Assembly: GCA_050246815.1 (NCBI GenBank)
Contig: JBFWVI010000017.1
Span: 1-58,865 of the forward strand
From: Bdellovibrionales bacterium
GTDB taxonomy: Bacteria; Bdellovibrionota; Bdellovibrionia; Bdellovibrionales; UBA1609
DNA length: 58,865 bases
Direction: 5' to 3'
Numbering within the stretch: position 1 is the first letter of the stretch; the number at the start of each line of letters is the position of its first letter. A model generated the notes under the pieces. That model saw nothing but the letters and a program-made list of their open reading frames with translations. It was not told the DNA's origin and did not search any database. Shown here piece after piece: positions 5,558 through 39,323 of the stretch. A program made the position numbers and the translations under genes.

Positions 5558-5592
5558 ATGACAAAATGTCCCACCAAGAGGCGGTTTGTCTC
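5558..5592. promoter_or_regulatory. Tandem activator sites (GRGACA-N3-TGTCYC)
   Basis: atgaca-aaa-tgtccc (5558-5572) and gaggcg-gtt-tgtctc (5578-5592). Confidence 0.65.
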
Positions 5593-5630
5593 GATAGACC
5601 CCCTTCTATTCGATCCTAGGCCCTACCAAT

Positions 5631-5646
5631 CGGCCCCGACTATGCA
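5631..5646 (+). promoter_or_regulatory. sigma54 -24/-12 promoter
   Basis: cGGccccgactatGCa has GG-N10-GC spacing, 39 nt after the palindrome. Confidence 0.55.
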
Positions 5647-5649
5647 GAC

Positions 5650-6084
5650 TCATATGCCGAAGACCAGTTTGCCGCCAATTTGCCCGACCCGAACGGCAAT
5701 GTAAAACTGGCTGGCCAAAAGCACAAGGAGTGCCCCGTGAAAAAAAATCGACCACTTCAAGTTGCGCAGGGTTACAGCCAAAACCAGCAGACACAAAACG
5801 GCCAGCCAAATCAACATAAACCAAAAAGCCAACTCTTGGTGTTCGACCAAGAGTTCGGTTGGTGCCGAAGAAAGCACCATATCCCGCTGCCCCGTCAGGT
5901 AAGCCAGTGCAGCGCCAACCAATTGCACAACCACGACACCGATATGCAAAAACCAAGTTCGATGGGGCAAAAGCTGAGTTTTGATCAAAATCAGGAGCAA
6001 AACATGAATCAACGGAAACAAAAAGGCCAAGGCCAAAGGAACATGGACAGCCGCACTGTGATGAAGATTGATCATTTCGTTCAT
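5650..6084 (-). CDS. DUF2231-like membrane protein
   Basis: Four TM segments; H..AVHVPLAL, a His before TM3, GGKLVF end; start may be ATG 6075. Confidence 0.75.
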   Translation of the reverse strand: MNEMINLHHSAAVHVPLALAFLFPLIHVLLLILIKTQLLPHRTWFLHIGVVVVQLVGAALAYLTGQRDMVLSSAPTELLVEHQELAFWFMLIWLAVLCLLVLAVTLRNLKWSIFFHGALLVLLASQFYIAVRVGQIGGKLVFGI

Positions 6085-7221
6085 AGACTAAAGCCATCCT
6101 TTAATTGGCGTCAACTGGCATTGCTGCTTCTGCTGGTGCTGCCCGGTCTGGTTCAGGCCGATGAAGTGGACGGTCTGACCAAGGGGTTGATGCACAGTTT
6201 TGTGCTCGAATACGCCAAGATGAACCCTTATCTCACCAGCGAAAAAGCCTTCAGCAGCAAGGAAGGACAGGCGACCATAGGAAAATCGCTCAAAGTGCTG
6301 GCCGGCAAAGTTAAAAGCACTTCACCCCAACTTGAAGGTAGTCCTGGCTTTCGCATAACTTATGGCCTTCTGGCCGACCACCTGCAAAAGACCGAACAGG
6401 CCTTTCAAAGCGGCGAAATGGATCATGCCCGCATGCGCATCAACGGCCTGGGCAATTTGTGCGCCGCTTGTCATATGCAGGCGCCCAGGATTTCTCATTT
6501 TTCTGCCTTTGAGTTTGTGGTGGAACGAAGTCAAGATGTCAGCTTCAACAACGCCGAATTTTTGTTTGTCGTACGCCGTTATGACGAAGCCTTAGCCCAG
6601 TATGATAAACTGGTGCGAGACTATCCAAAATCAGGTCTCACGCCGGACCAGCTCAGCGAAGTCTATCGCCGTAAACTTGCCATTTTCGCACGCGTTTATC
6701 GAGACCCCAACGCGGCTACCGAAAACCTGAGCACTGATCTCAAGAATAAAAACCTGCCGATAGACGTGCGACGCAATATTGAAAGCTGGAGCACCACACT
6801 GCAAAGCTGGAAAAATGAAAAAGTCGATCCCGCCAAATTAAAAACCGCGGATCTTCTGACCTATACCAGCAAAAATCTGCCCGTGGACCTGAGCCGAAAA
6901 ATTGCGCCGGACAATCCACAATTGCTGCATATTTTAAGAATCTCGGGACTTTTGTACGAACGCTTGTACAAAGATCCCGCCAGTGACAACACCCAAGGAC
7001 TTTTGTACTATTTGGCTCGCTGCGAGCGAAGTTTGGCCCCTTTGTATTGGTACCCCATCAATGAAATTTACTTGAAACAGTGTGTTGTGCAATATCCCAA
7101 GAAGTCCTATTCAAAACGCTGCTTCGAAGCCTATCGTGAAGGCATGCAAGAGCGCTACTTTGGACGCCCCTTGCCTGATGGAGTACAGCAAAGTATTAAT
7201 GCATTAAAAGAATCTATTTAG
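6061..7221 (+). CDS. Exported cytochrome c'-like (single CXXCH) TPR protein
   Basis: Signal peptide ...LLLLLVLPGLVQA, helical domain ending CAACH, TPR-like repeats. The upstream part of ORF 5680 is antisense to DUF2231; start uncertain. Confidence 0.7.
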   Translation: MKIDHFVHRLKPSFNWRQLALLLLLVLPGLVQADEVDGLTKGLMHSFVLEYAKMNPYLTSEKAFSSKEGQATIGKSLKVLAGKVKSTSPQLEGSPGFRITYGLLADHLQKTEQAFQSGEMDHARMRINGLGNLCAACHMQAPRISHFSAFEFVVERSQDVSFNNAEFLFVVRRYDEALAQYDKLVRDYPKSGLTPDQLSEVYRRKLAIFARVYRDPNAATENLSTDLKNKNLPIDVRRNIESWSTTLQSWKNEKVDPAKLKTADLLTYTSKNLPVDLSRKIAPDNPQLLHILRISGLLYERLYKDPASDNTQGLLYYLARCERSLAPLYWYPINEIYLKQCVVQYPKKSYSKRCFEAYREGMQERYFGRPLPDGVQQSINALKESI

Positions 7222-7234
7222 AAAGGCTAACACC

Positions 7235-7714
7235 ATGAACGCAGCTCATTTTCATCTTCTCGTGAACCACTTCCCCCTGATTGGATTGTTTTTTGCGCTA
7301 CCACTTTTGATTTATGGTTCGCTTCGCTCGAATGAACATTTTGTGCGAGCAGGCCTTTTTGTCGCCTTGGTCGCGGGATTATTGGCCGCGCCCACCTTTC
7401 TGACCGGTGAGCCGGCTGAAGAAATTCTTGAAAAACGACCGGGCTTTTCTGAGCCCCTGGTCGAAGCCCATGAAGAGGCCGCTGAATTCGCCATTTGGGT
7501 AATCAGCATCACCACCTTGGCTGCCGCCGTAGCACTTTGGGCCTCCGTCAAAAAAAATACCAACTCCAAGATGCTAATCCGAGCTGTCATCGTGTTGAAC
7601 CTCTTTTCACTCGTGGTTATGGCCAGAACCAGCCAGCTGGGCGGCAAAATCGCACACCCTGAGATCCGCGACTCTAACGCGCCATCGTCGCCAGCCCATG
7701 AAGGTCACGATTAA
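7235..7714 (+). CDS. DUF2231-like membrane protein
   Basis: HFHLLVNHFPLIG, TGEPAEE, EAHEEAA, GGKIAH. Confidence 0.75.
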   Translation: MNAAHFHLLVNHFPLIGLFFALPLLIYGSLRSNEHFVRAGLFVALVAGLLAAPTFLTGEPAEEILEKRPGFSEPLVEAHEEAAEFAIWVISITTLAAAVALWASVKKNTNSKMLIRAVIVLNLFSLVVMARTSQLGGKIAHPEIRDSNAPSSPAHEGHD

Positions 7715-7731
7715 GTGATATCTACTTTGAG

Positions 7732-10308
7732 ATGAACAATGACATCCCCTACGAAGGATTAAGTGAATCTCAAGCGACCCAGCGCCTGGCCGCGGTCGGG
7801 CACAATGAATTGCCCCATGCCAAAAAAGAAAATTTTTGGCTGCAGATTTCACGGTTGTTTAAAGAGCCCATGCTTTTGCTTTTGGTTGCAACTGGCGCCA
7901 TTTACCTGACCATGGGTGATCTTGGTGAAGGGCTAATGCTTGGCGCGTCAATCCTTGTCGTCATTGGAATCTCTTTTTACCAGGAGCGCAAATCCGAGAG
8001 GGCACTGGCGGCACTTCGAGAAATTTCAAGCCCCCGCGCCTTGGTGATCCGTGATCGGATTGAAAAAAGAATCCCTGCCAATCTGATCGTCCCCGGTGAT
8101 CTTGTGGTCCTGCACGAAGGCGACCGAGTCCCCGCCGATGGAAGCATCCTGCAGTCTTCAAATCTTAGCATTGATGAGTCCCTGATCACGGGAGAATCAT
8201 TCCCGGCCAAAAAAGCGGCCTTAATAAGTACAGACCGCGAAAAATCATTCGAAGAGCTGGACAATTCACTTAAAGTTTTCTCAAGCACGCTTGTGGTCAG
8301 CGGAACGGCCTTCGTGCGAGTCATAAAAACTGGCCTGCAAACGGAAGTCGGAAAAATTGGCAAAAGCCTTCAAGAAATTGAACCGGAGGAGCTGAACCTT
8401 TCAAAAGAGATTCGTCAGATTGTGCGACTATTTGCCTGGTCGGGAGGACTGATTTGCATCGCGATCGTGGTGCTTTATGGCCTGTCACACCAGCAATGGA
8501 CCGAGGCCTTTTTGATTGGCCTGGCAACACAAATGGCGCTTTTGCCAGAAGAGTTCCCAGTCGTCTTGACAATTTTTTTAGCAATGGGAGCCTGGCGTCT
8601 TTCGAAGATTCAAGTTTTGATTCGTCGCCCGGCTTCGGTCGAGCGATTGGGTGCGGTCACCGTATTGTGCGTCGACAAAACCGGCACTTTGACATTAAAT
8701 CAAATGACGGTCGCGGGGCTGAACAATGGCAAAACTTCGATCGCCATCGATGCCAACTCTGCACAAAACTTAGCCGAAGATTTCCACACCGTAGCGGAGT
8801 TTGGGGTCTTGGCCAGCCATCTGGATCCCTTTGACCCGATGGAAAAAGCCATTCGCCGAATGGTTTTGGAAGGGAACTGGGGCAAAGATCATCTGCATCA
8901 AGATTGGCAGTTGATTCGCGATTACCCGCTTTCGGACAAACTTCTGGCGATGTCCTGTGTTTGGAAAGCCCCCAATTTGGACTCTTATGTGATCGCCGCT
9001 AAGGGGGCTCCCGAAGCCATTGTCGATCTGTGCCACCTGGACCCCAGCCAAGCAAAAAATGTCTTCAAAGCGACACAAGAAATGGCTAATAGCGGCCTTA
9101 GAATCCTTGGCGTTGCAAAGGCCTCATTTTCGCAAAAGCAATTGCCCGCCAATCAACACGACTTTGAGTTTCAGTGGCTAGGCCTAATTGGGTTGGCAGA
9201 TCCTCTGCGTCCAGAGGTTCCAAAAGCCATTCAGCTGTGCCGCAACGCCGGCATCCGCGTGATCATGATGACCGGCGACTACCCTGAAACCGCGCTCAAA
9301 ATCGCAAGCCAAGCAGGTATCGAGACTTCAAATTCCCTGATCACGGGCTCTGAGCTTAAATCACAGTCAGACCACGAACTTATTGAGCGTTTAAAAAATG
9401 CGCATATTTTCGCGCGCATGGCGCCAGAACAAAAACTTCGTGTCGTGAAACTGCTCAAAAATATGGGTCATGTCGTCGCCATGACTGGCGACGGTGTCAA
9501 CGATGCCCCAAGTCTTAAATGGGCTGACATCGGCATCGCCATGGGGGCCCGGGGCACGGATGTGGCCCGCGAAGCCTCGGATATCGTGATTTTGGATGAC
9601 AACTTTGCATCAATTGTTGCGGGCGTGGAACGCGGGCGTATCATCTTTAGCAATATCAGAAAAGCCATGGGCTATATCGTGTCTATTCACGTGCCCATCG
9701 CCGGTCTTTCTATTTTGCCCATCATATTCGACTGGCCGCTGATCCTAATGCCCGTTCACATCGTCTTTTTGGAGTTGATTATCGACCCCGCGTGCTCGCT
9801 GCTTTTCGAATCGCAGGACGCCGAGGAAGGATCTATGGACTCACCGCCTCGACTTTTGAATTCGCGCCTATTTTCGGGGCGCGATCTGATTCGCAGCTTT
9901 TTACAAGGTTCCTTTGTTTTGGCTATCGTGATGGCCCTTCTTTGGTTCGATACGCAGATCAATCAAAGCGACCCGGATGGCGCGCGCACCCTGGCTTTCA
10001 TCGTTCTGGCGATGAGCAACATCGGCCTTATTTTTGCCGACATGAGTGGGGGTAACCTTGGGCAACTGCGACAGCTGTTATTAAAAACATCGAACAAAAT
10101 AATAGTTTTGGCGGTGGTGCTTGGCCTGTTCTTGCTGACCCAGTTCGCTCAAGTTCGTGCGCTATTCCGGTTTGGACAACTTGAAACGCTAAAATTCATC
10201 TGGGCCGTGGGCATTGCGTTTTTAGTCTTTGTCTCTATTAGTTTGTGGAATTGGCTGGCCAAAGAATGGGGCCAGCCGCGAGCGACCCCAAGGAATTTTT
10301 CAGTCTGA
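7732..10308 (+). CDS. Cation-transporting P-type ATPase (P2, Ca2+-like)
   Basis: TGES, PEEFP, DKTGT, KGAPE, TGDGVND. Confidence 0.93.
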   Translation: MNNDIPYEGLSESQATQRLAAVGHNELPHAKKENFWLQISRLFKEPMLLLLVATGAIYLTMGDLGEGLMLGASILVVIGISFYQERKSERALAALREISSPRALVIRDRIEKRIPANLIVPGDLVVLHEGDRVPADGSILQSSNLSIDESLITGESFPAKKAALISTDREKSFEELDNSLKVFSSTLVVSGTAFVRVIKTGLQTEVGKIGKSLQEIEPEELNLSKEIRQIVRLFAWSGGLICIAIVVLYGLSHQQWTEAFLIGLATQMALLPEEFPVVLTIFLAMGAWRLSKIQVLIRRPASVERLGAVTVLCVDKTGTLTLNQMTVAGLNNGKTSIAIDANSAQNLAEDFHTVAEFGVLASHLDPFDPMEKAIRRMVLEGNWGKDHLHQDWQLIRDYPLSDKLLAMSCVWKAPNLDSYVIAAKGAPEAIVDLCHLDPSQAKNVFKATQEMANSGLRILGVAKASFSQKQLPANQHDFEFQWLGLIGLADPLRPEVPKAIQLCRNAGIRVIMMTGDYPETALKIASQAGIETSNSLITGSELKSQSDHELIERLKNAHIFARMAPEQKLRVVKLLKNMGHVVAMTGDGVNDAPSLKWADIGIAMGARGTDVAREASDIVILDDNFASIVAGVERGRIIFSNIRKAMGYIVSIHVPIAGLSILPIIFDWPLILMPVHIVFLELIIDPACSLLFESQDAEEGSMDSPPRLLNSRLFSGRDLIRSFLQGSFVLAIVMALLWFDTQINQSDPDGARTLAFIVLAMSNIGLIFADMSGGNLGQLRQLLLKTSNKIIVLAVVLGLFLLTQFAQVRALFRFGQLETLKFIWAVGIAFLVFVSISLWNWLAKEWGQPRATPRNFSV

Positions 10309-20803: not shown

Positions 20804-20818
20804 GGTTCCTTCGCCCCC

Positions 20819-21733: not shown

Positions 21734-21734
21734 T

Positions 21735-23060: not shown

Positions 23061-23108
23061 GAGACAATTCGCCCCAAACATATAATTTCCATTGAGTTCA
23101 ATTGTCCC
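23061..23108. promoter_or_regulatory. Two activator sites
   Basis: gagaca-att-cgcccc (23061) and gagttc-aat-tgtccc (23094). Confidence 0.6.
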
Positions 23109-23146
23109 CTTCTGGACCTGAAAGAACGAACGGTTGGCTCTTAGAA

Positions 23147-23162
23147 CGGCACGACTCTTGTA
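23147..23162 (+). promoter_or_regulatory. sigma54 promoter
   Basis: cGGCACGactcTTGTa (near-consensus, T at -12), 39 nt after the palindrome. Confidence 0.65.
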
Positions 23163-23625: not shown

Positions 23626-23631
23626 CATTCA

Positions 23632-24918: not shown

Positions 24919-24937
24919 ACCAAAAAAGGAGTAACAC

Positions 24938-25351
24938 ATGAATCAACTGAATTTACCGGTCGAAGAGTTCACCACCCCTGATCCGGTCACTGCACCGGAA
25001 ACCATGCCGATCGAAGAGATCAGTGCGATCATGAAAGAATGCGGTATTCGTCACCTGCCCATCGTTCGCGATGGAAAAGTCGTCGGCTTGGTGAGTGATC
25101 GAGACCTTAAAGTCGCCATGGGCTTGAACCGTGGAGAAAAACTGATGGTAAATGCCAGTGACATCATGGTCACGGACTTGGTCACCATCAATTCAACAGC
25201 CACACTAGACCAAGCCGCTTTTAAGATGTCTTCTAAGAAAATCGGCAGTTTGCTAGTGAACGACGAAAACAACAACTTTCTGGGAATTTTCACGGCCACT
25301 GATGCTTTGAACGCCTTGATCGAAATCGTTCGCGAAAATTTGGGGGATTAG
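24938..25351 (+). CDS. CBS-pair protein
   Basis: IRHLPI, GLVSDRD, GIFTATD. Confidence 0.9.
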   Translation: MNQLNLPVEEFTTPDPVTAPETMPIEEISAIMKECGIRHLPIVRDGKVVGLVSDRDLKVAMGLNRGEKLMVNASDIMVTDLVTINSTATLDQAAFKMSSKKIGSLLVNDENNNFLGIFTATDALNALIEIVRENLGD

Positions 25352-26859: not shown

Positions 26860-26874
26860 GAGACTATTTGTCTC
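26860..26874. promoter_or_regulatory. Activator site between the divergent regulator and kinase genes
   Basis: gagact-att-tgtctc. Confidence 0.65.
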
Positions 26875-26928: not shown

Positions 26929-28062
26929 ATGCCAACTACCGAACTCGATGCGCTTAAACAGCTGCAGGACCAAAAATTTGCCTTAGACCAATCGGCGATT
27001 GTGGCCCAAACCGACGCCAGGGGCATCATCACCATGGTGAACGACAAGTTTTGCCAGATTTCGGGTTACTCCCGCGCCGAATTGATCGGCCATGACCACC
27101 GCGTCGTAAATTCGGGCACCCACAGCAAGGAATTCTTTCGCGAGCTTTGGCACACCATTCGATCAGGCCGGGTTTGGCGCGGTGAGGTTTGCAATCGTAA
27201 AAAATCCGGTGAGCTTTACTGGGTGGCAACAACCATCACGCCATTTTTAGACGCCAACCAGCAGCCCTATCAATACCTTGCCATTCGTCAAGACATCACC
27301 GCCTTGATGCTGGCCAAGCAAAGGATTGAAGAGCAAGAGGCGCAGCTGGTCTCAGCCTCGCGCCTAAGCGCCATAGGTGAAATGGCAGCGGCAATCACCC
27401 ACGAAATCAACAACCCCCTGGCGGTGATTTTGGGTCGTACCGAAATGATTTCAAGCCTGGTCGATAAAAACCAATTGAACCCTGAAGTGCTCAAACGCTT
27501 GGTGGACACCATTTACATCACGGGTAAACGCATTGAAAGAATCGTGCGCTCGATGAAGACCCTGGCTTACAGTGGCTCGGACGAAGAGCCCTTTGCATTG
27601 TGTTCGGTCAAAGAGATTCTGACCGATTCGCTTGAGTTGTGTTCGCAGCGCTTTGAAAACCATGGCATCCAAATGCAGACCCCAAAGATCGAAGACTCCT
27701 GGATGATCGAGTGCCGCAGTCACCAAATCGTGCAAGTTCTGGTCAATTTGATGAACAATGCCCATGACGCCGTCAAGCAGCTGGATGACCGTTGGGTCAA
27801 AGTTGAACTCCAAATTAAAAATGACCTCTTAGAAATATCAGTGACCGACAGTGGCCAGGGAATCCCGTCCGATGTGGTGCCAAAATTATTTGACCCTTTT
27901 TTCAGCACCAAACGGGTTCAATACGGAACGGGCTTGGGCTTAAGCATTTCAAAAAGCCTGATTGCCGCCCACCAGGGAGAGTTGCTTTACGATGCCTCAA
28001 ACCCCAACACCCGCTTTGTTATGCGTTTGCCGACCCGGCACAAAAAAACCAACTCCGCTTAA
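26929..28062 (+). CDS. Cytoplasmic PAS histidine kinase (NifL/Aer-like PAS)
   Basis: PAS with LW...WRGEVCNRKKSG; HEINNP, N box, DSGQG, GTGLGL; no TM. Confidence 0.9.
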   Translation: MPTTELDALKQLQDQKFALDQSAIVAQTDARGIITMVNDKFCQISGYSRAELIGHDHRVVNSGTHSKEFFRELWHTIRSGRVWRGEVCNRKKSGELYWVATTITPFLDANQQPYQYLAIRQDITALMLAKQRIEEQEAQLVSASRLSAIGEMAAAITHEINNPLAVILGRTEMISSLVDKNQLNPEVLKRLVDTIYITGKRIERIVRSMKTLAYSGSDEEPFALCSVKEILTDSLELCSQRFENHGIQMQTPKIEDSWMIECRSHQIVQVLVNLMNNAHDAVKQLDDRWVKVELQIKNDLLEISVTDSGQGIPSDVVPKLFDPFFSTKRVQYGTGLGLSISKSLIAAHQGELLYDASNPNTRFVMRLPTRHKKTNSA

Positions 28063-28767: not shown

Positions 28768-28805
28768 ATGACAAATAATCCCATGGATGCGGGACAATCT
28801 GTCCC
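28768..28805. promoter_or_regulatory. Tandem activator sites upstream of the cco operon
   Basis: atgaca-aat-aatccc (28768) and perfect gggaca-atc-tgtccc (28791-28805). Confidence 0.7.
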
Positions 28806-28834
28806 AAATGCCCCCTTGCATATCCCTTTGCCCC

Positions 28835-28861
28835 TGGCATCTTTTTGGCAAAGCTCTGGCC
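28835..28861 (+). promoter_or_regulatory. sigma54 promoter candidate(s)
   Basis: tGGcatctttttgGCa (28835) or tGGcaaagctctgGCc (28846), both GG-N10-GC. Confidence 0.5.
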
Positions 28862-28863: not shown

Positions 28864-31032
28864 ATGAGCAGTTATTTTACCTCACCTTCAGCACAATCCG
28901 ACTTTTCATTTCTGGATGAAGATTCGTTGAATTCGATCTATGTCAAGGGCCAGGCCCAGCAACATATTCGCTTTTTTGTCGAGGGCATCCGCTGTGCCAA
29001 ATGCCTGCGTAAAATTGAATCTCTGCCAGCCTCCATCCCAGGGTTGTACGAAGCTCGGGTCGAGATGGGTAAAAACTTGGTCCATGTGAAATTTGACCGC
29101 CAGCAAGTCAACCCCTCGCAAATCGCGGCCAAGCTGATCGGCCTCGGCTTTAAGGTCCGTGCCCTGGCCCAGGACGCCGATGTGGAACTGGCACAGCGCC
29201 TGGAGGACCGCCGGTCCTTGATCCGCTTGGCGGTGGCCGCCGCCTGCATGGGTAATATTATGGGTTTTGCCTTTGCACTTTATTTTGGCGTGCAAGGGGC
29301 CTGGTTGACGGTCTTTTCTTGGTTGAGCTTTATTTTTTACCTGCCCGTGGTCACTTTTGTGGCTTGGCCATTTTATGTGGGTGCCTGGCAAAGCCTCAAA
29401 CAAGCTCGTATCTCGATCGATCTGCCTATGGCAGTGGCTTCATTGGCAGGCTTTGTCTTTTCAACGGTTCAACTTCTTCGTGGCCACACCGATTTTTATT
29501 TTGATTCCATGAGCGGTTTTTTGTTCTTGATTCTTCTGGCCCGCTTTGTCCAAACCCGAGTCCAGCGTCGTTACTTAAGCCCCACACACAATAGCGAAGA
29601 CCTGGGCCGCGCGCGACAGATGCGGGGCCTTGACTGGAAATGGCGCCCCACCAGCCAACTTGTGCCAGGCGATGAGATCTTGGTTGAAACAGGTGAAACT
29701 GTTCCGATTGAAGGTCGGCTGCTGAGCCCGCGGGCCCATATTTCCATGGCTTGGCTGACAGGTGAATCAAAACCACGGCTTATTATGGCGGGTGCCCTTG
29801 TACCGGCCGGCGCCAAGCTATTGGGTGGCGCAATCCGAATTTCTTACACCAAACCCCTTGCCGAAACCGACTTCGGTAAAACCTTAAACGAAATCCAAAG
29901 CTTTGCCCTGACACAAAATCGCGCCATTTCAACTGCGGATCGCTGGACTCAGTGGCTGCTGGGCACGGTGTTTCTTTTGGCTTTGGCGTATCTGTTCACC
30001 CATTGGCAAGCGTCACCGGAAGAGGCCATCCACCGCAGCCTGGCCTTGATTGTAATCGCCTGCCCCTGTGCGATGGCATTTGGCACCCCACTGGCCTTAG
30101 CTTTTTCTCTCAGAAAAGCAAAAGAACGAGGCCTTTTGATCGCCGACGCCAATGTTTTTGAATCCACCACCCGCATCAAAAATGTCTTCTTCGACAAAAC
30201 AGGAACCTTAACGGACGCCGAACTGAGTTTGTCGACTCCGGTCGCACGGATACCGCTGGTGTACCAAAAAATTATCTTGGCACTTGAGAATCAATCTTAT
30301 CACCCGATCGCCTTCGCCTTTCGTAATGCCTTTTCAGATTTTGGCAAATTGCCCCCGGTCAGCATGTGGAAGGAAACTCCCGGTAGAGGGGTTTCTGGAT
30401 ACGTTTTCGGAAAGTTCTACAATCTGCAAAGCATCGCCGACTCAAAAGCACAGATGACAAGCTGCGAACTGCTGGAAGATGCGAAATTGGTGATGCGCTT
30501 TGAGTTCGAAGCCAGCCTTAAACCCGGTGCAGAACAGACGCTGAAGCGCTTGCGTCAAAACGGCCTCAGCCTGCAGCTGATTTCTGGCGACAACGAACAT
30601 GTGGCCATGAAACTTGGCCAACGCCTGGGTTTTCGGCCCGAAGAAATTCACGCCAACATGACACCGCAACAAAAAGAGTCGTTGGTGCGACAAACGCCCT
30701 TGTCGATGATGATTGGCGATGGTGTCAACGATGCCCAAGCCATGATGAGCGCGGATGTGGCTGTGGCGACATCAGGAGCCGTGGGTGCCGCGCTGAAAAG
30801 CTCGAAAGTTTATTTGGCTCAAGACGATCTCAACTCACTGCTAGACTTATTCAATATTTCAAGGGCCAGCTCGAAATTGATGCGCCAAAACCTATCACTT
30901 TCACTGATTTATAACTTGGTGGGAGCCGCCTTGGCCCTGACCGGCCACATCAATCCACTGCTCGCAGCCCTGTTGATGCCAATCAGCAGCTTTGCGATTT
31001 TACTGAACACCTGCCGAGGTGGGCAGTCGTGA
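28864..31032 (+). CDS. ccoI: cbb3 oxidase assembly copper P1B ATPase
   Basis: EGIRCAKC, CMGNIM, CPC, DKTGT, YHP, GDGVND; precedes ccoS/ccoN; start uncertain. Confidence 0.88.
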   Translation: MSSYFTSPSAQSDFSFLDEDSLNSIYVKGQAQQHIRFFVEGIRCAKCLRKIESLPASIPGLYEARVEMGKNLVHVKFDRQQVNPSQIAAKLIGLGFKVRALAQDADVELAQRLEDRRSLIRLAVAAACMGNIMGFAFALYFGVQGAWLTVFSWLSFIFYLPVVTFVAWPFYVGAWQSLKQARISIDLPMAVASLAGFVFSTVQLLRGHTDFYFDSMSGFLFLILLARFVQTRVQRRYLSPTHNSEDLGRARQMRGLDWKWRPTSQLVPGDEILVETGETVPIEGRLLSPRAHISMAWLTGESKPRLIMAGALVPAGAKLLGGAIRISYTKPLAETDFGKTLNEIQSFALTQNRAISTADRWTQWLLGTVFLLALAYLFTHWQASPEEAIHRSLALIVIACPCAMAFGTPLALAFSLRKAKERGLLIADANVFESTTRIKNVFFDKTGTLTDAELSLSTPVARIPLVYQKIILALENQSYHPIAFAFRNAFSDFGKLPPVSMWKETPGRGVSGYVFGKFYNLQSIADSKAQMTSCELLEDAKLVMRFEFEASLKPGAEQTLKRLRQNGLSLQLISGDNEHVAMKLGQRLGFRPEEIHANMTPQQKESLVRQTPLSMMIGDGVNDAQAMMSADVAVATSGAVGAALKSSKVYLAQDDLNSLLDLFNISRASSKLMRQNLSLSLIYNLVGAALALTGHINPLLAALLMPISSFAILLNTCRGGQS

Positions 31033-31190
31033 ACATTTTGGTTTTGATGATACCCATCACCTTTTTATTGAGCGCGGGTTTTTTAGCCGCATTTATTTGG
31101 GTCGTTAAGAGCGGCCAATATGACGACACCGAAACACCCGCGCACCGCATTCTTGTCGATGAAAACAAAGCTGAGGAGCAATCAACATGA
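31029..31190 (+). CDS. ccoS: cbb3 oxidase maturation protein (53 aa, missing from ORF track)
   Basis: GTG start: MNILVLMIPITFLLSAGFLAAFIWVVKSGQYDDTETPAHRILVDE...; overlaps both neighbours by 4 bp. Confidence 0.92.
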   Translation: MNILVLMIPITFLLSAGFLAAFIWVVKSGQYDDTETPAHRILVDENKAEEQST

Positions 31191-33331
31191 AATCGACCGA
31201 GCAAAACAAGTATGAAGACGTCATCTACGACGACGAGATCGTCAAGAAGTTCGCCCTGGCTACGATGGTATGGGGTGGAATCGCCTTCGTGGTGGGGCTG
31301 GTGGCCGCCCTGCAGTTGGCCTATTGGAAATTCAACTTCAATCTGGAATGGCTGAGTTTCGGACGGCTTCGCCCACTGCACACCAACGCAGCCATCTTCG
31401 CTTTCGCCGGCAACGCCATCTTCGCCGGCATTTATCACTCAAGCCAACGCCTGCTCAAAACCAGAATGTTCTCAGACGCCTTAAGCAAGATTCACTTTTG
31501 GGGTTGGCAATTAATCATCTTGGCCGCCGCGATCACCCTGCCGCTCGGCTACTCCCAGTCTAAAGAGTACGCCGAGCTGGAGTGGCCCATTGACCTATTG
31601 ATCACCCTGGTGTGGGTTGTTTTTGCGGTCAATTTTTTTGGAACTTTGGCAAAACGACGTGAAAAGCACATGTACGTGGCCATTTGGTTTTATATCGCCA
31701 CCATTATCACCGTGGCGGTTTTGCACATTGTTAATTCGATTGAAATTCCGGTTTCACTTTTTCAAAGTTACCCGGTTTACGCCGGTATCCAGGACGCCTT
31801 GGTGCAGTGGTGGTACGGGCACAACGCGGTGGCCTTCTTTTTAACTACGCCCTTTTTGGGTCTCATGTATTACTATCTGCCCAAAGCGGTCAATCGACCG
31901 GTCTACTCTTATCGACTGTCCATCATCCATTTTTGGGCTCTTGTTTTCATCTATATTTGGGCGGGGCCCCACCACTTGCTTTACACCTCACTCCCCGAAT
32001 GGGCGCAAACCCTAGGCATGGTCTTTTCATTGATGCTTTGGGCCCCTTCATGGGGCGGCATGATCAATGGTCTTTTGACCTTGCGGGGATCTTGGCACCT
32101 GCTGCGCACGGATCCGATCGTGAAGTTTTTGGTCACTGCGGTGACCTTCTATGGCATGTCGACCTTTGAAGGCCCCTTGCTTTCAATCAAATCGGTCAGC
32201 AGTCTGGCCCACTATACGGATTGGATCATCGCGCACGTGCATGGTGGTGCTCTGGGCTGGAACGGTTTTCTGACCTTTGCCATGCTCTACTATTTAGTGC
32301 CACGCTTATGGAACACCCAACTTCACAGCGTGAAGTTGGCAACCACCCACTTTTGGTTAGGTTTTTTGGGGATCATTCTTTACTACCTGTCCATGTGGGC
32401 CGCGGGCATCACCCAAGGTCTGATGTGGCGTGCGATCGATGCCAACGGCCGCTTGGTCTACCCCGATTTTGTTGAAACAGTGATGCGAATTGTACCCCTT
32501 TATTGGGTCCGCGCACTGGGTGGTTTGCTGTTCATCGCCGGCTTTTTGATCATGGTTTACAACATCTACAAAACCATCAAGTCGGCGCCCGTCAGTCACC
32601 CGCAGCGCTTAAGCGTGCTCAACACACGCCATGCACCCAGCGAGACCGGACACCGTCGGCTTGAAGGGGCCGCAACTGCCTTTTCGATACTCTCTCTCAT
32701 CGCGATCCTGGTGGGCTCGGTGATCGAGATTTATCCGACACTCTCTTTGCACAAATACATCCCTGCCAATATGCAGAGCCAGCCCTATAGCCCGCTCGAA
32801 TTGGCCGGACGCGACATCTACGTCAAAGAGGGTTGTTACGTCTGCCACTCGCAACAAATTCGTCCGCTGGCGGCGGAAATTCTTCGCTATGGCCCACCGT
32901 CAACCGTTGCCGAATCGATGTACGATCGTCCGTTTCAATGGGGCTCAAAGCGCACGGGTCCGGACTTGGCACGTGTCGGCCAGAAGTACCCCGATCTTTG
33001 GCACTACCGCCATATGATCGACCCCCGACTGGTCACGCCAAAATCAATCATGCCCGCATACCCCTGGCTGGCCTCGAAAAAGCTCGACTTTCAAATCTTG
33101 CGCAAAAAACTTTCGGTGATGCGCAATTTGGGCGTGCCTTATGACGACGAGACCGTGGCCAACGCTGACTTATTGGCCGGCAAACACGCCGCAAAAATCG
33201 CAGCGGAGCTTCACGCGCAAGGAGCACCAAAAGGATTGGACGATAAAGAAATCGTGGCCCTGATCGCCTATCTTCAAGCGCTGGGTCAAAAAAGCAAACC
33301 TGCTGCGGGTACAACCGCCCAAACGGAGTAA
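31187..33331 (+). CDS. ccoNO: cbb3 cytochrome c oxidase, fused subunits I/II
   Basis: RPLHTN, WWYGHN, GPHH, HVH; C-terminal GCYVCHSQ, WGSKRTGPDL. Confidence 0.96.
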   Translation: MKSTEQNKYEDVIYDDEIVKKFALATMVWGGIAFVVGLVAALQLAYWKFNFNLEWLSFGRLRPLHTNAAIFAFAGNAIFAGIYHSSQRLLKTRMFSDALSKIHFWGWQLIILAAAITLPLGYSQSKEYAELEWPIDLLITLVWVVFAVNFFGTLAKRREKHMYVAIWFYIATIITVAVLHIVNSIEIPVSLFQSYPVYAGIQDALVQWWYGHNAVAFFLTTPFLGLMYYYLPKAVNRPVYSYRLSIIHFWALVFIYIWAGPHHLLYTSLPEWAQTLGMVFSLMLWAPSWGGMINGLLTLRGSWHLLRTDPIVKFLVTAVTFYGMSTFEGPLLSIKSVSSLAHYTDWIIAHVHGGALGWNGFLTFAMLYYLVPRLWNTQLHSVKLATTHFWLGFLGIILYYLSMWAAGITQGLMWRAIDANGRLVYPDFVETVMRIVPLYWVRALGGLLFIAGFLIMVYNIYKTIKSAPVSHPQRLSVLNTRHAPSETGHRRLEGAATAFSILSLIAILVGSVIEIYPTLSLHKYIPANMQSQPYSPLELAGRDIYVKEGCYVCHSQQIRPLAAEILRYGPPSTVAESMYDRPFQWGSKRTGPDLARVGQKYPDLWHYRHMIDPRLVTPKSIMPAYPWLASKKLDFQILRKKLSVMRNLGVPYDDETVANADLLAGKHAAKIAAELHAQGAPKGLDDKEIVALIAYLQALGQKSKPAAGTTAQTE

Positions 33332-33334
33332 ACC

Positions 33335-33532
33335 ATGAAAGCCGAAGGACTCAAATATTTTAGCGACTCCCCGATCATGGTGATCGGGCTGCTGATTTTT
33401 GTGACCTGCTTCTTGGGGTATGTGCTGTGGGTGAACCGAAAAGGCTCTACCGATTTTTATCAAAGAATCGCATCCTTGCCGCTCAATGAACCGGATTCTG
33501 CAAAGGAGAACCACCATGTCGGACACAAATAA
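33335..33532 (+). CDS. ccoQ: cbb3 oxidase subunit CcoQ
   Basis: Single TM, ASLPL ending, position in operon. Confidence 0.8.
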   Translation: MKAEGLKYFSDSPIMVIGLLIFVTCFLGYVLWVNRKGSTDFYQRIASLPLNEPDSAKENHHVGHK

Positions 33533-34085
33533 AAACGATCCCACTCCGATGGACCATGCGTATGATGGCATACAAGAGTACGACAACCCCTTGCCCGCAT
33601 GGTGGTTGATCACGTTTTTTCTGACCATTATCTTCGGTTTCAACTACTGGATCGACGCCGAGTTCGCCGGACGTCAAACCCAGGTGCAGGAGGCCGAATC
33701 CGAAGTGGCCGCCCTACGCGCATTGAGTCCCACGACGGCTCAGCCGCAAGAAAGCGAAGATGAGTACAAACAATTGGCCGCCAGCGGCGCACTGGCCGCC
33801 CAAGGTAAGAGTGTCTATGTCGCAAAATGTGCGGCTTGCCACGGCGCTGAAGGTCAAGGTCTGATCGGACCCAATTTGACGGACGATCACTGGCTGAACG
33901 GCCGAGGTGGCTTTGTTGATGTGGCCAAAGTGGTTCGCCAGGGCGTGCTGGACAAAGGTATGCCCGCTTGGGAGACTCAAGTTAGCGCCGACGAATTAAA
34001 ACAAGTCGTGGTGTACGTGGTCAGCTTGGCCGGCACGCAGCCCGCCAACCCCAAACCTCCGCAAGGTGAGAAAGTCGCTCGCTAA
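33516..34085 (+). CDS. ccoP: cbb3 oxidase subunit III, short mono-heme form
   Basis: HAYDGIQEYDNPLPAWW, CAACHG, GPNLTD, GMPAW. Confidence 0.9.
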   Translation: MSDTNKNDPTPMDHAYDGIQEYDNPLPAWWLITFFLTIIFGFNYWIDAEFAGRQTQVQEAESEVAALRALSPTTAQPQESEDEYKQLAASGALAAQGKSVYVAKCAACHGAEGQGLIGPNLTDDHWLNGRGGFVDVAKVVRQGVLDKGMPAWETQVSADELKQVVVYVVSLAGTQPANPKPPQGEKVAR

Positions 34086-35479
34086 TGGAAACCCCCAGCC
34101 TGGAGAGATTATCGAGCCTCGACGAATGGGGGGATCGCAAACACATCATCCCCGCCAGCGTCACCGGGTATTGGAGAACCTTACGAACGCGGGTTTATTT
34201 CGTCTTGCTGATGATTTTTTTGATTGCGCCGTGGACCAAGGTCAACGGCCTGCAAACCATCTGGCTCGACATACCTGCCCGTCGTTTTACAATTTTGGGC
34301 CGAGTCTTTTTAGCGCATGAAGCACCGATGTTGTTCTTTATTTTCGGAATTTTGGTTTTGGGCCTCGCTCTGGTGACGGCTCTATGGGGGCGAGTCTGGT
34401 GTGGCTGGGCTTGTCCGCAGACTGTATTTATCGACACCATCTATCGCCGCATCGAAACTTGGATCGAAGGCGACTACATCAAAAGGCGTAAGCTTCGAAC
34501 GGCTCCCATCAACTTCGAAAAAATCTGGAAAGGCACACTGAAATGGGCCGCGTTCATTGCCGTCAGCTCTTTGATCGCCCACAGCTTTATCGCTTACTTT
34601 GCCGGCGCGGAGCCTCTTTTGAAGATGGTGCAAGCCGCACCTGGGACCAACTGGGGGTATTTTATCGTCGTGACCTTTGTCACGGCCGTCTTGGCTTTTG
34701 ATTTTGGTTGGTTTCGCGAGCAATTTTGCGTGATCATGTGCCCTTACGGCCGATTTCAATCTGTGCTGATGGATGAAGACTCCGTCACGGTCGTTTACGA
34801 CAAGGCCCGTGGCGAGCCCCGCCGCCGCAGCGTTCCCCAAGGACAAAAAATCGGCGACTGCGTGGCCTGCAACCGCTGCGTTGAAGTGTGCCCCACCGGA
34901 ATTGACATTCGCAACGGCACCCAGATGGAGTGCATCGGTTGCACGGCCTGCATCGACGCCTGCAACGAGATGATGGAGCGCGTGAAAAAGCCCACCAATC
35001 TGATTGCCTATCAAAACTTGACCAAAGCGCCAGCTCGCTGGAAGCGACCACGGGTTTTGGTGAACATTGTGCTGCTCGCCTTGATGACTCTGGGTTTGAG
35101 CGCCAATTTAGTCGGCCGCTCGACTTACTATGCCTCGGTTTTACGAGCCAAAGATGTCCCTTACCAGGTTCTGCCGAATGGCGAAGTAATCAATCATTTT
35201 AAACTGCATTTGCACAATCAATCCAATGCGAAGCAACGCTTTGAACTGGCTTTGGATCCAGAATGGATCGCCAAAGGATTGCGCTTGACCCACGCCCAGA
35301 CCAGCTACGACATCTTGCAAGGGCAAGATAAAGTCATTCACTTTTTCGTTAATTTTCCGGCTGTATTGACCGCCCAAACGGGAACGCTCAATCTAGTGCT
35401 GCAAGTCCGGGAGAACTTGTCCGCCACCACCAGTGAACTGTCGCTCAATGCCATTGGACCGCAAGCGAGCAACCCATAA
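34085..35479 (+). CDS. ccoG: cbb3 accessory 4Fe-4S protein
   Basis: GRVWCGWACPQT, CPYGRFQ, two CxxCxxCxxxC motifs. Confidence 0.93.
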   Translation: METPSLERLSSLDEWGDRKHIIPASVTGYWRTLRTRVYFVLLMIFLIAPWTKVNGLQTIWLDIPARRFTILGRVFLAHEAPMLFFIFGILVLGLALVTALWGRVWCGWACPQTVFIDTIYRRIETWIEGDYIKRRKLRTAPINFEKIWKGTLKWAAFIAVSSLIAHSFIAYFAGAEPLLKMVQAAPGTNWGYFIVVTFVTAVLAFDFGWFREQFCVIMCPYGRFQSVLMDEDSVTVVYDKARGEPRRRSVPQGQKIGDCVACNRCVEVCPTGIDIRNGTQMECIGCTACIDACNEMMERVKKPTNLIAYQNLTKAPARWKRPRVLVNIVLLALMTLGLSANLVGRSTYYASVLRAKDVPYQVLPNGEVINHFKLHLHNQSNAKQRFELALDPEWIAKGLRLTHAQTSYDILQGQDKVIHFFVNFPAVLTAQTGTLNLVLQVRENLSATTSELSLNAIGPQASNP

Positions 35480-35522
35480 TTTCTTTGCAACAGCACAAAA
35501 GACCCGGCTAAGCTAACCGCAC

Positions 35523-36248
35523 ATGTGGCAAGAATTCGCTCTTTTTATGACTTCGATTGCGGCCGCGATGGTCGCCTCGATCACCGGCTTTGGCATTGGC
35601 AGCTTGATCACGCCGCTTTTAAGTGTATCGGTTGGCACCAAACTGGCTGTGGCGTTGGTTTCAATCCCTCACTTAGTTGCAACGGCCTTGAGGTTTTGGC
35701 TGCTCAAGAGCCACGTGGACCGCCGCGTTTTGCTGATCTTCGGATCCATGAGCGCCATAGGCGGGCTGTTGGGCGCATTTTTGTACGCGCAGTTTGCCAC
35801 CCCCGCGCTGAATCTTATTTTCGGCTCCATCTTGATTTTTGCCGGTTTTATGGGCGCATCCGGCCTATCTGAAAAAATGCGCTTTCGAGGGGCTGTGGCC
35901 TTGGCCGCGGGTGCGCTTTCAGGACTTCTTGGTGGAATGGTTGGGAATCAGGGGGGCATCCGCTCGGCAGCCTTGCTGGGCTTTCAAATTTCAAAGGAAT
36001 CCTTTGTGGCCACGGCCACGGCCATCGGGTTGATCGTGGATGGGGTGCGCATGCCTATTTACATCTGGAGCGAGTGGCAAGGACTGGCCGCCAACGGCAA
36101 ATGGATCCTGCTGGCCGTTGTCGGCGTGGTTGCCGGCACACTGCTGGGCTCAAAACTTTTGAAGAGGATTGAAGAGCGCCTTTTCAAAAGGATTATTTCA
36201 AGTGTTATTTTAATTCTCGGCGTTTTTATGCTTTACCAAGGGCTATGA
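35523..36248 (+). CDS. TauE/SafE (TSUP) membrane protein
   Basis: TGFGIG..ITPLL, GGMVGNQGG, about 8 TM. Confidence 0.85.
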   Translation: MWQEFALFMTSIAAAMVASITGFGIGSLITPLLSVSVGTKLAVALVSIPHLVATALRFWLLKSHVDRRVLLIFGSMSAIGGLLGAFLYAQFATPALNLIFGSILIFAGFMGASGLSEKMRFRGAVALAAGALSGLLGGMVGNQGGIRSAALLGFQISKESFVATATAIGLIVDGVRMPIYIWSEWQGLAANGKWILLAVVGVVAGTLLGSKLLKRIEERLFKRIISSVILILGVFMLYQGL

Positions 36249-37449
36249 CCGCAGCCAAGGCCATCAACAAGAAAACAACAGTCAAGCGGCGTGAGTAAGA
36301 GCTGCGCGTGATGACCCAAGCCATACCTATTTTCGCGGTCAAAGAGGCCACCACCCCGATCAAAATAGAATCGCCCGCGGCTTCTAGTGGCATTTGCCCT
36401 TGATCAAACATAGTCGCTATTGCCAGACTCATGCCGTGTAGCTCGAAGAGTCCGGTGAAAAAAGCCGCAAGTTGAGTGGCGCCCGTTCCCAAACTTTTTT
36501 GAACTGCCGCGACCAGGGCCAAAATCACGGCCAAAAAAACCGATAAGCGCACGACCCCAGAAAAATCCAAGGGAGAGTGCAGGTCCATCGGCGTCGAAGC
36601 GCGTGGGGCCTTTCTGCCCATGAGTAAAAGTGCTCCGACCGCGACAATAAGGCTTGCGCTCACAGGCATCGCCACGCGCATAAGTAGGGGGGGCGACACC
36701 ATTGCCACAATAATCAGCAGTTCAATCAGTGCGGCCGCTTTTGCAGCAACAGCCGAAGACAACAAGGCCGAGGACTCTTTCGGTAACTGTGTGCTTTTTC
36801 TTGCCGTAGAAAGTAGCACCGCCGTGCTGGACGCGAACCCCCCTAAAAAACCTGAGATTAGAGATCCCTTCTTGGCACCAAAAATTTTCGAGAATACGTA
36901 GCCGGTAAACTCGAGGCCCGCCAAAACCAAAACTAAAAGTCCAAATTTTTTGGGGTTCAAGATGCTCCACGGATCAACGGCCCGATCTGGCAGCAAGCGC
37001 AAAACGCTGACCGCCAAAAGCATCAGCAAAATCGCAGCCTGCAACTCTGATGGACGAATGGTGGCGGTGAATCGGTGCAATGTTTTCTTTGAAAACAAAA
37101 CCAAAGCCACCACAGGCCCCAGCACCGCGCTCAGCAGTGGTTCATGGTGCGCGCCATAACCGATCACAAAGACGACTGCGGCGGCAAACTCGGTGGTCAA
37201 CCCCATGTCATCGGGCTTTTCTTTACTCGAAATAAAATAAGCAACGACGATGCTCAACAAAACGAAAATGGCGATGGCGAAACCAAAAAAAATTTCCTCT
37301 GCGCCCCCCGCCAAGGCGCCCAAAAGGGCCAAAAGCACGAAGGTCCTTACCCCCATGGTCTTTCCCAAGGGGTGGGCTTTTTCTCTCTCGATACCCACCA
37401 ACAAACCAAGTAGGCCGGCAATCAAATAGGGCGACCAATATTCCATCAA
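36226..37449 (-). CDS. MgtC/SapB-DUF4010 membrane protein
   Basis: GIERE, GVRTF, GLTTE, GGFASSTA. Confidence 0.88.
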   Translation of the reverse strand: MMEYWSPYLIAGLLGLLVGIEREKAHPLGKTMGVRTFVLLALLGALAGGAEEIFFGFAIAIFVLLSIVVAYFISSKEKPDDMGLTTEFAAAVVFVIGYGAHHEPLLSAVLGPVVALVLFSKKTLHRFTATIRPSELQAAILLMLLAVSVLRLLPDRAVDPWSILNPKKFGLLVLVLAGLEFTGYVFSKIFGAKKGSLISGFLGGFASSTAVLLSTARKSTQLPKESSALLSSAVAAKAAALIELLIIVAMVSPPLLMRVAMPVSASLIVAVGALLLMGRKAPRASTPMDLHSPLDFSGVVRLSVFLAVILALVAAVQKSLGTGATQLAAFFTGLFELHGMSLAIATMFDQGQMPLEAAGDSILIGVVASLTAKIGMAWVITRSSYSRRLTVVFLLMALAAVIALGKA

Positions 37450-38000
37450 GGCGCTTTCTCAAGAAGCTGAATATTGGTCTTGGCCCTAGTCAAAATTTGG
37501 AACAGACGACGGCGACGCAAAATGGGCCACCACTCATAAAGCAGCAGGTTTAACGGCCGCCAAAGCGCAACCCATCCCAAAATTTGCAAACCCTGCTTTA
37601 GAACTTCCATGACCAGACTGTTCTGCTCGTGTAAAAGCAGACCGGCTGCCTGACACGCCAACAAAAACAAAAGACCTAAGGCCGCCGCCCAGCGGGCCTC
37701 ACTGAATAAAGCGCGAAGCTCCCCTTGGACCGATTCAACTTCGAATTCAAAATATTCGTGAATCGCCTGTTCAACGTCACTGGGGCTAAAATGCTTCATT
37801 TCAGAACCGGCGATTTGTAGATTTAAGTGAACTTCACGAATCTCGGGCGCCTCTTTGACGGCGACAATCAGATAGCGGGCGAAATCGTCATCCAAATCTT
37901 TTTCGCGAAATGGCGATGGATCACGCAAATCAAAGATTTGATCCAGACTTTTCAGAGTCAAAGAGATAAAGAGGCCGGAACCCTGAATTTGAAATGCCAT
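37446..38000 (-). CDS. Conserved hypothetical membrane protein
   Basis: DPSPFREKDLD, two TM, GWVALWRP..LLYEWWP. Confidence 0.7.
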   Translation of the reverse strand: MAFQIQGSGLFISLTLKSLDQIFDLRDPSPFREKDLDDDFARYLIVAVKEAPEIREVHLNLQIAGSEMKHFSPSDVEQAIHEYFEFEVESVQGELRALFSEARWAAALGLLFLLACQAAGLLLHEQNSLVMEVLKQGLQILGWVALWRPLNLLLYEWWPILRRRRLFQILTRAKTNIQLLEKAP

Positions 38001-38027
38001 GCAGCTTGGCCCCCAGCTGCTTGACTA

Positions 38028-39200
38028 TCAAAGACCACGCCCGGCAAGCAAACCTTTTCGCTCAATTTGAGCGGCGGGGCTGCCACTTTCCGCTTGTCTT
38101 TGAATGGCGCGTAGCAGACTGCCCATGTAAAGCCGGATGCCGACCCCAAGTAAGCGCCAATACCACCGAAAGAGTCGTTGCGCACCTGGGCTTGTCGAAT
38201 GAATTCGCATTTCGGCATGGAGCAGGGATTGTTGCATGCCCGGGATGGCTTCGATGCGAATTACGGTCACAACTTTCGAAAACCCCAAAGCGGCAAAGCT
38301 AGAAAACTCATCGGGTCGGCAGGTCTCGATACCAAAATTAAAACGCCAGAAGCGGCCAATCAGCCCGGTCACGAACTCATAAGGCATGTTCTCGTACAAA
38401 GTGACCATGCCAAAACGTTTTGCAGTTTGCGCAAAACTTTCTTGAGCTTGTATCTTTTCGCCCCGCCCCAAGGTGCGAACGGCCGCCAAAAAACGAGCCA
38501 TCTTCATTTGATTAAAATTCAAGCCTGCCAGGGCGCGATAAATATCGCTCGGCTGCCCCGCCACGATCAATCGACCCGTCCAAGCCTGTTCGAATTGTGG
38601 CATAAAGCCCTGCAGCCGAACCTGGTCAGGCAAACGAACAACGCTCGCAAAAGGACCAATGTTGTTTTCTGCACAAAAGTCTTCAAGAAAGGCGTCTACG
38701 GTATTCCAATCCGTCATCTCATGATCTTGCCGCGTGTCGGTCGGACCACCGGCCGACTGACTGATCCACAACATCAATTTTCGCAGCGGCCAGCTGTATT
38801 GGGTGTACTGAATCGCGCCCGCGATGCTGGCCACATAATCCGGAGTCCAGTGAGTTTGTTGAATGAATTGGCGCAGCAACCCGTCGTCGGCTAAACGTCG
38901 ATCCGTTCGTTTGTCGGCCGCATTTAAACTGACGGTGAAAAAGGCGCTCGTCAGATCGCTGAGCTTGCCGGACTGACTTCGCACCCACGCCAGCATGGTC
39001 TTCGAAAACTGCTGAGCATACACCGGACAACCCACAATCACGGCATCCACTTGCGGATCAAAAGCAAAGTCTGAGCCCAAGGCATTGACGTCGTGCCTTT
39101 GCACGCCATAGCCATGGCTAAGCAAAGACAGCTCCATATATTTGGTGATTTTTTCGGTTTGCCCGGATTTGCTTTGATAGATGATGGCGATGTGTTTCAT
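38028..39200 (-). CDS. hemG: HemG-like flavodoxin protoporphyrinogen oxidase fused to a ~200-aa C-terminal domain
   Basis: YQSKSGQTEKI, AFFTVSL, AGAIQYTQY, GGPTDT..DHEMTDW. Confidence 0.75.
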   Translation of the reverse strand: MKHIAIIYQSKSGQTEKITKYMELSLLSHGYGVQRHDVNALGSDFAFDPQVDAVIVGCPVYAQQFSKTMLAWVRSQSGKLSDLTSAFFTVSLNAADKRTDRRLADDGLLRQFIQQTHWTPDYVASIAGAIQYTQYSWPLRKLMLWISQSAGGPTDTRQDHEMTDWNTVDAFLEDFCAENNIGPFASVVRLPDQVRLQGFMPQFEQAWTGRLIVAGQPSDIYRALAGLNFNQMKMARFLAAVRTLGRGEKIQAQESFAQTAKRFGMVTLYENMPYEFVTGLIGRFWRFNFGIETCRPDEFSSFAALGFSKVVTVIRIEAIPGMQQSLLHAEMRIHSTSPGAQRLFRWYWRLLGVGIRLYMGSLLRAIQRQAESGSPAAQIERKGLLAGRGL

Positions 39201-39232
39201 TTAAAATTGCTCCCGTGTCTTAACTGCTTTGG

Positions 39233-39248
39233 AGCAACATCAATGCCG
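39233..39248 (-). promoter_or_regulatory. sigma54 promoter for the hemG operon
   Basis: Minus strand cGGCAttgatgTTGCt, 39 nt from the palindrome. Confidence 0.7.
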
Positions 39249-39286
39249 TTCAACATATGCTATTTAAGACCCGTCCAGCGAAGAAT

Positions 39287-39323
39287 GGGAAAAAATGTCT
39301 CGGATCGACGAGGCACTTGTCCC
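39287..39323. promoter_or_regulatory. Tandem activator sites
   Basis: gggaaa-aaa-tgtctc (39287) and cgaggc-act-tgtccc (39309). Confidence 0.6.

Follow-up and report, generated by a model that had tools for sequence, protein, structure and literature searches.

What controls the cbb3-type cytochrome oxidase of a bacterium in which the usual regulators of this enzyme are not found? Operons for cbb3 oxidases (cco) are usually controlled by FNR, FixK or Anr, or by RegBA. We examined a stretch of 58,865 nucleotides (nt) from a Bdellovibrionales bacterium (GenBank assembly GCA_050246815.1, contig JBFWVI010000017.1; hereafter the window), in which a cco operon lies close to the genes for a sigma54 activator and a PAS histidine kinase. 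A first-pass annotation had proposed that a sigma54 two-component low-oxygen switch, acting through the palindrome GRGACA-N3-TGTCYC, replaces the usual regulators here. The genome itself (G000; 3.4 Mb, 99% complete, with the window as contig C17 and 148 other contigs) yielded no full-length FNR match, only a cysteine-free Crp-type gene beside nirK; no RegA scored over the cut-off, and no FNR-like box was found upstream of ccoI. As far as sequence can tell, the predicted regulon is real and well supported. We consider it likely that the palindrome is an enhancer of the adjacent activator, which would be phosphorylated by a redox-sensing kinase and would switch on cbb3 and stress genes at low oxygen. 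What can be read from the DNA is that the sites exist, pair at distances of 20-24, 29-34 or 40-43 nt, are phased to -24/-12 elements and co-occur with the activator clade, that the kinase has the flavin-pocket residues and that FNR and RegA matches are lacking; low oxygen is proposed as the signal because of the sensor type and the target genes.

Nine copies of the palindrome had been claimed, and all nine 15-mers are found at their positions. Compared to GRGACA-N3-TGTCYC, they carry no mismatch (28791), one (26860, 39287), two (5558, 5578, 23061), three (23094), four (28768) or five (39309), and the refined consensus reads GDGACA-WWW-TGTCHC. We rebuilt the scoring matrix from 71 sites of relatives. 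Eight of the claimed sites rank within its top 10 window positions, at 10.5-19.3 bits, a ranking that is partly circular because the 71 sites had themselves been chosen with a window-trained matrix. The ninth copy, 39309, fails at -5.6 bits and was dropped. It is a mere right half-site, and the hemG promoter therefore has one full site and no pair.

The copies had also been described as mostly paired and all upstream of genes. Mismatch and matrix scans support the pairs 5558/5578 (5558..5592, 20 nt apart) and 23061/23094 (23061..23108, 33 nt apart). A third pair, upstream of the cco operon (28768..28805, 23 nt apart), combines the weak site 28768 with the perfect site 28791 and is conserved in G002, G003, G004, G025, G037 and others. 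The description does not fit 39287 (39287..39301), which stands single upstream of a HemG-like gene, its partner being unsupported, nor 5558/5578, which does not lie directly upstream of the cytochrome gene. One strong single site, 26860 (26860..26874), lies as annotated between the divergent activator and kinase genes; it occupies the same position in G002 and G033 and is likely autoregulatory. The additional window sites ranked by the rebuilt matrix, at 51940, 30341, 50884 and 775, fall inside reading frames without a convincing promoter.

Could the motif be an artefact of composition or of hand fitting that has no role in regulation? In the window its enrichment is modest: ten matches with at most two mismatches stand against 5.2 expected, and three of 100 shuffles score equally high. 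One claimed site fails, and simple pattern counts exceed reversed controls in some genomes only; per genome, such counts are too noisy to separate genomes with the activator from those without. What renders the artefact highly improbable, and largely refutes it, is the intergenic enrichment, pairing and phasing of the motif in held-out contigs, in 40 loci of close relatives and in 20 further loci. This enrichment, genome-wide and in relatives, was the check that the first-pass annotation had asked for. Our crude caller of open reading frames assigns 92% of the genome to coding sequence and about 8% to intergenic DNA; even so, of the 23 sites that deviate by one mismatch or none, 12 are intergenic, three lie in 5' ends and eight in reading frames. 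On the 148 other contigs, a matrix built from the eight window sites gives 10 intergenic matches of at least 14 bits, versus 2.4 +/- 2.5 for 30 column-permuted matrices, and pairs there are spaced by 20-22, 29, 33-34 or 43 nt. Twenty further genomes were picked solely for the activator, 17 of them from other orders. Sites are present in 15 of these 20 loci, with 37 non-coding matches versus 7.0 +/- 3.1 for permuted matrices (maximum 21 in 100 permutations).

An enhancer of this kind should be found at regular distances from sigma54 promoters. GG-N10-GC elements had been reported 39 nt from three of the sites, and 30 or 41 nt from the one at the cco operon. These gaps are borne out, with first G at 5632, 23148 and 39247 (minus strand) and at 28836 and 28847, except that 23148 is GG-N10-GT. 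The elements are 5630..5646 (+), 39 nt from 5578 and directed into the 3' end of a gene on the opposite strand; 23146..23162 (+), 39 nt from 23094; 39233..39249 (-), 39 nt from 39287; and 28834..28850 (+), 30 nt from the perfect site 28791. The last predicts a transcription start at about 28861, 3 nt before the ATG at 28864. We discarded the 41-nt alternative at cco, since transcription from it would begin past this conserved ATG. The site-to-element spacing of 29-30 nt at ccoI is retained in G002. With its ATG 3 nt past the predicted sigma54 start (28836-28866), ccoI appears nearly leaderless, and the interval is 3-6 nt in G000, G002, G003 and G004.

Across other contigs and relatives, the distances are helically phased, at 29-30, 38-43, 49-51 and 59-64 nt. 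The 40 close-relative loci give 29-30, 38-40, 49, 59-61, 69-70, 79, 88-89 and 109-113 nt, and a sigma54 element is found no more than 140 nt from 27 of their 57 non-coding sites, versus 8.7% of 1500 control positions. Twenty-four of these distances, counted after exclusion of four second sites that share a promoter and with one borderline case retained, are periodic (R 0.78 at 10.2 nt, the best of four periods tried). In the 20 further genomes, 25 of the 37 non-coding matches have an element, and phasing is R 0.50. Off the window in G000, a sigma54 score of at least 11 occurs within 200 nt at 7 of 16 loci, versus 17.6% of 843 background regions. Site 26860 has no upstream-type sigma54 partner. 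A sigma54-like element at 26919-26935 (-) lies exactly 59 nt upstream of it, which places the site downstream of the promoter; this arrangement is not kept in G002 and G033. A second case of an element exactly 59 nt upstream of a site that follows its promoter is found at G000:C49:15065 (-).

Which protein would read these sites? The gene at 25383..26813 (-) encodes an NtrC-like sigma54 activator (PF00072, PF00158, PF02954) with a receiver aspartate D71, Walker A, GSFTGA loop, Walker B and a Fis-type helix-turn-helix. This domain set, paired palindromes upstream of -24/-12 promoters and the presence of rpoN in the genome agree with what is expected of NtrC-like sigma54 response regulators. The recognition helix RRTLYR is invariant across the activator clade. 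Fifteen of 21 clade rows, or 14 of 20 once the training genome is left out, have a site of at least 10 bits directly upstream, within about 270 nt of the activator start, versus none of eight rows of the nearest abundant paralogue; rows of a sister paralogue have a variant site upstream in two of two cases. G000 encodes 13 sigma54 activators with strong matches. Among the 12 examined, the window's activator has the best upstream site, at 19.3 bits. In five genomes (G003, G006, G023, G222 and G260) the gene for the activator is either close to ccoI or transcribed divergently from it, and sites are found between the two genes or next to them. The 25383-26813 protein is thus predicted as the likely binder of GDGACA-WWW-TGTCHC. 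Of 301 genomes of the phylum, which is likely Bdellovibrionota, 109 carry the family by a profile of its C-terminal region (E 1e-20); sister paralogues may be among those counted. The family is nearly absent from genus g44 (1/20) and family f22 (1/74), both well sampled.

The likely cognate sensor is encoded at 26929..28062 (+). It is a soluble histidine kinase without any hydrophobic segment, with one MmoS/Aer-type PAS domain and the phospho-histidine at 158. The best Protein Data Bank (PDB) matches of its PAS are MmoS (E 1e-46), then Aer and NifL. Residues H57, W74, N89 and R120 match H53, W70, N85 and R115 of Aer, and Aer R57 is replaced by N, as in the MmoS alignment; flavin-pocket residues of Aer and MmoS are described in PMC9668731. 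The PAS domain is therefore predicted to carry flavin adenine dinucleotide and to sense redox. A haem-binding, FixL-type PAS was considered because of an NCBIfam FixL match; it is ruled out by the PDB matches and the flavin-pocket residues. Similar PAS kinases lie beside or near most close orthologues of the activator. Partner kinases do vary: the PAS is more distant in those of G006, G023 and G035, and those of G034 and G040a have no PAS match. No globin match was found in the adjacent kinase or in 29 entries from the relatives' activator loci, the rest of the genome not having been searched for a protoglobin kinase.

Is the cco operon then controlled by this system in place of FNR? We scored 30 cco operons within a fixed span of 420 nt, 21 from activator-positive and nine from activator-negative genomes; G016 was omitted because its contig ends inside ccoI. 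Sites of at least 10 bits occur in 15 of the 21 and in one of the nine, and a site together with a sigma54 element in 12 of the 21 and in none of the nine. None of these 12 operons has an FNR-like box, versus six of the other 18. Six cco operons have the box beside a cysteine-cluster FNR gene, and in seven genomes cco adjoins a Crp/FNR gene whose product has a cysteine cluster at its N terminus. Full-length FNR-type matches are found in nine of 41 genomes, two of which also carry the activator. Three changes between the two states are required on a FastTree phylogeny of CcoI, and well-supported branches enforce two of them. In relatives without the activator, cco is likely controlled by an FNR-type protein instead. 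The proposed replacement of FNR and RegBA by a sigma54 two-component switch is supported on these grounds: the motif tracks the activator clade and is phased to -24/-12 elements, rpoN is present, FNR and RegA matches are lacking, and relatives without the activator often carry FNR with an FNR-like box at the same operon.

Several observations weigh against this reading. Nine of the 21 activator-positive cco operons failed the combined test within 420 nt, a span that missed, or may have missed, sites found in other scans in G035, G189 and G314. G006 and G034 hold both regulators; G001, G012 and G030 show neither the motif nor the FNR state at cco, against a clean split; and in G013 a site close to the threshold (9.8 bits) is accompanied by a phased sigma54 element, with no activator match in the genome. 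Off the window, the intergenic excess is insignificant at 12 bits or more (14 versus 9.0 +/- 4.9 permuted). Five of the 20 distant loci have no site, 30 of the 57 sites in relatives have no sigma54 element within 140 nt, and several strong sites in G000 have no sigma54 partner (the nrdJ pair on C4; C106; C1). The weights used to score sigma54 elements were set by hand from a consensus, and p-values overstate significance because the genomes are kin, not independent. Finally, contig C37 encodes a sister paralogue of the activator with a similar helix and a variant upstream site of 11.9 bits. Some or all sites might then be read by another regulator, either this C37 activator, which belongs to the same wider clade, or a sigma70-type factor, with the neighbouring activator owning only some of them; paired sites without any -24/-12 element would fit such an arrangement. 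It appears improbable, since the sites cluster round the window's activator in relatives spanning many families, and since the five genomes named above have the activator gene near or divergent from ccoI together with sites. We retain the adjacent activator as the likely reader of the palindrome.

Which genes would it control? The cbb3 and CBS/CoA-transferase operons stand as predicted targets, as first annotated. The former (28864..36248, +) comprises a ccoI-type copper ATPase, a fused ccoN-ccoO, ccoP, ccoG and a TauE-family gene, and the latter (23215..25351, +) a CBS protein, an acyl-CoA:acetate CoA-transferase and a second CBS protein. The claimed HemG is only HemG-like: the product scores 104 bits, under the cut-off of 142, and has about 200 extra residues. 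It is a flavodoxin fusion, in one operon with a hypothetical protein and an MgtC/DUF4010 membrane protein (36226..39200, -). The annotated cytochrome/P-type ATPase operon (6061..10308, +), encoding an exported CxxCH protein, a DUF2231 protein and a type II P-type ATPase, lies behind an antisense gene and is only a probable target. Homologues of its genes follow motif sites in G036, G135 and G172. The antisense gene (5650..6084, -) is likely a DUF2231-family membrane gene, although its product has no Pfam match at E 0.01. It separates the 5632 element from the cytochrome gene, and a transcript would have to cross it to reach that target. The cytochrome gene probably starts near 6061; the genes 5650-6084 (-) and 6061-7221 (+) are divergent with overlapping starts, which leaves no room for an intergenic promoter. 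Antisense genes within activator islands occur also in G150, G263 and G023. An operon divergent from the CBS operon and sharing its intergenic region (19406..22988, -) encodes a CxxCH protein, a tandem universal stress protein (USP) and a beta-CASP metallo-hydrolase. No canonical -24/-12 element was found for it, and its membership in the regulon is uncertain here; its genes are common near the activator in relatives. The products of 21735-22988 (-) and 6061-7221 (+) are exported, with one CxxCH motif, helical repeats and no Pfam family. Atlas clusters of such CxxCH helical proteins are unnamed and mostly from Bdellovibrionota, and homologues lie near the activator in many relatives.

Off the window, where gene names are our reading of translations and not library matches, good composites of site and sigma54 element stand before genes for an Hsp20 (C15), a Spy-like protein (C5) and a CBS protein (C45), as well as before an operon whose last gene is DUF1003-like (C135). 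Likely further targets, as predicted from these promoters, are the Hsp20 gene together with one for a host-attachment-like protein, and the genes for the CBS and Spy-like proteins. nirK is probably another predicted target: a site pair lies inside the Crp-type gene, 167 nt ahead of a sigma54 element. A strong pair before a class II ribonucleotide reductase gene has no sigma54 element. At G000:C4:44500-52650, nirK, the cysteine-free Crp-type regulator, an NnrS-like gene and a class II ribonucleotide reductase are clustered and accompanied by three motif pairs. A perfect site is located within the coding sequence of the Crp-type regulator; an FNR-like box is at 50859.

These targets bear on the nature of the signal. 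The wiring could be right and the signal instead be general energy or reductant status, the system serving starvation or dormancy, with cbb3 as one part of its regulon. Targets such as USP, CBS, Hsp20, HPF-like S30AE and ion-channel proteins would suit this, as would the variable partner kinases, two of which (G034, G040a) have no PAS match, and the fact that PAS domains of the Aer type follow respiration and do not themselves bind oxygen (PMC9668731). In contrast, cbb3, ccoI, hemG-like, hemerythrin and nirK targets point to oxygen limitation, as does the swap with a cysteine-cluster FNR at the same operon, and we regard a starvation signal as rather unlikely. Under the low-oxygen switch that we favour, the flavin PAS would report the redox state of respiration, the kinase being more active with reduced flavin, and the kinase would phosphorylate the activator at D71. 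Dimers of the activator may occupy a single site or two sites along the same helical face, assemble into oligomers upon D71 phosphorylation and open sigma54 promoters 30-70 nt away, and the lone site 26860 beside the activator gene would serve as an autoregulatory operator.

How does this compare to known systems? According to PMC11841059, which also names FixLJ and Fnr, NmpR in Myxococcus xanthus binds to pairs of GCGCA-N5-TGCGC sites and drives sigma54 promoters of a P-type ATPase-cbb3 operon, hemN-hemerythrin, CBS and USP genes; PMC6211767 describes NmpRSTU as a phosphorelay of protoglobin sensor kinase, hybrid kinase and phospho-sink. NmpR shares with our system an NtrC-like sigma54 activator, paired 15-bp palindromic enhancers, autoregulation and a proposed low-oxygen role, and targets including ccoI-cbb3, a haem-synthesis gene, CBS, USP and hemerythrin. 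The idea is therefore less new than the first-pass annotation had assumed. Unlike NmpR, the window's activator, 44% identical to it, has a different recognition helix and the site GDGACA-WWW-TGTCHC, and a single flavin-type PAS kinase takes the place of the protoglobin kinase, hybrid kinase and phospho-sink. We compared it with NmpR from the M. xanthus record (L081; D54 and V87 match the primers in PMC11841059). Orthology was rejected: NmpR is fifth of 16 M. xanthus matches, its own best match in G000 is another activator, and in a quick tree it falls in a separate clade with 100% SH-aLRT support. The ccoI promoter of M. xanthus was also sought, with no match at E 1e-60. The system would work like NmpR and is no member of NmpRSTU; the regulon looks convergent because clade, helix, site and sensor all differ.

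MmoS of Methylococcus capsulatus, Aer of E. coli and NifL of Azotobacter (PDB 3EWK, 8DIK, 2GJ3) resemble the kinase in PAS sequence and flavin-pocket residues. Unlike them, it is a short soluble kinase with a single PAS, beside a receiver-type sigma54 activator and with respiratory and stress targets. With the FNR/FixK/Anr and RegBA systems ours shares the target operon and the presumed purpose; it differs in that G000 has no FNR-type or RegA match, FNR and its box being found at cco in relatives without the motif. The copper regulon of PMC3707914 is not applicable. We found no description of the motif or of such a system in Bdellovibrionota in a literature search whose coverage excluded subscription papers and preprint supplements.

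This is not a new kind of mechanism. Added here are a refined site, a flavin-type sensor, evidence that the activator is no NmpR orthologue, and a likely exchange with FNR. In its widest form, which we hold to have about an even chance of being right, the proposal is a phylum-wide sigma54 redox switch with a flavin PAS, independent of NmpR, that would be the main low-oxygen regulator in about a third of Bdellovibrionota-like genomes and would have been swapped with FNR several times, so that three unrelated regulators converge on one regulon. The set of ccoI-cbb3, CBS and USP genes under NmpR in Myxococcus, this activator here and FNR in close relatives would make a natural case of regulon convergence. 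For a largely uncultured phylum the locus offers a testable regulator, site and sensor of oxygen adaptation, and the motif suggests a likely expression condition for unnamed families, among them the helical CxxCH proteins encoded near the activator.

Other features of the window deserve mention. A sigma54-like element without an enhancer site precedes tRNA-Thr and tRNA-Arg (40608-40794). Positions 10300-17665 contain a CueR-CopA copper module and an arsenate reductase with an aquaporin-family gene. The low-GC end (100-3948) has a weak Avs2-like match and an unannotated open reading frame of 432 amino acids, possibly a defence or mobile island. An MNIO-family bufferin maturase with a partner gene (52849-54355) suggests a locus for a ribosomally synthesised and post-translationally modified peptide.

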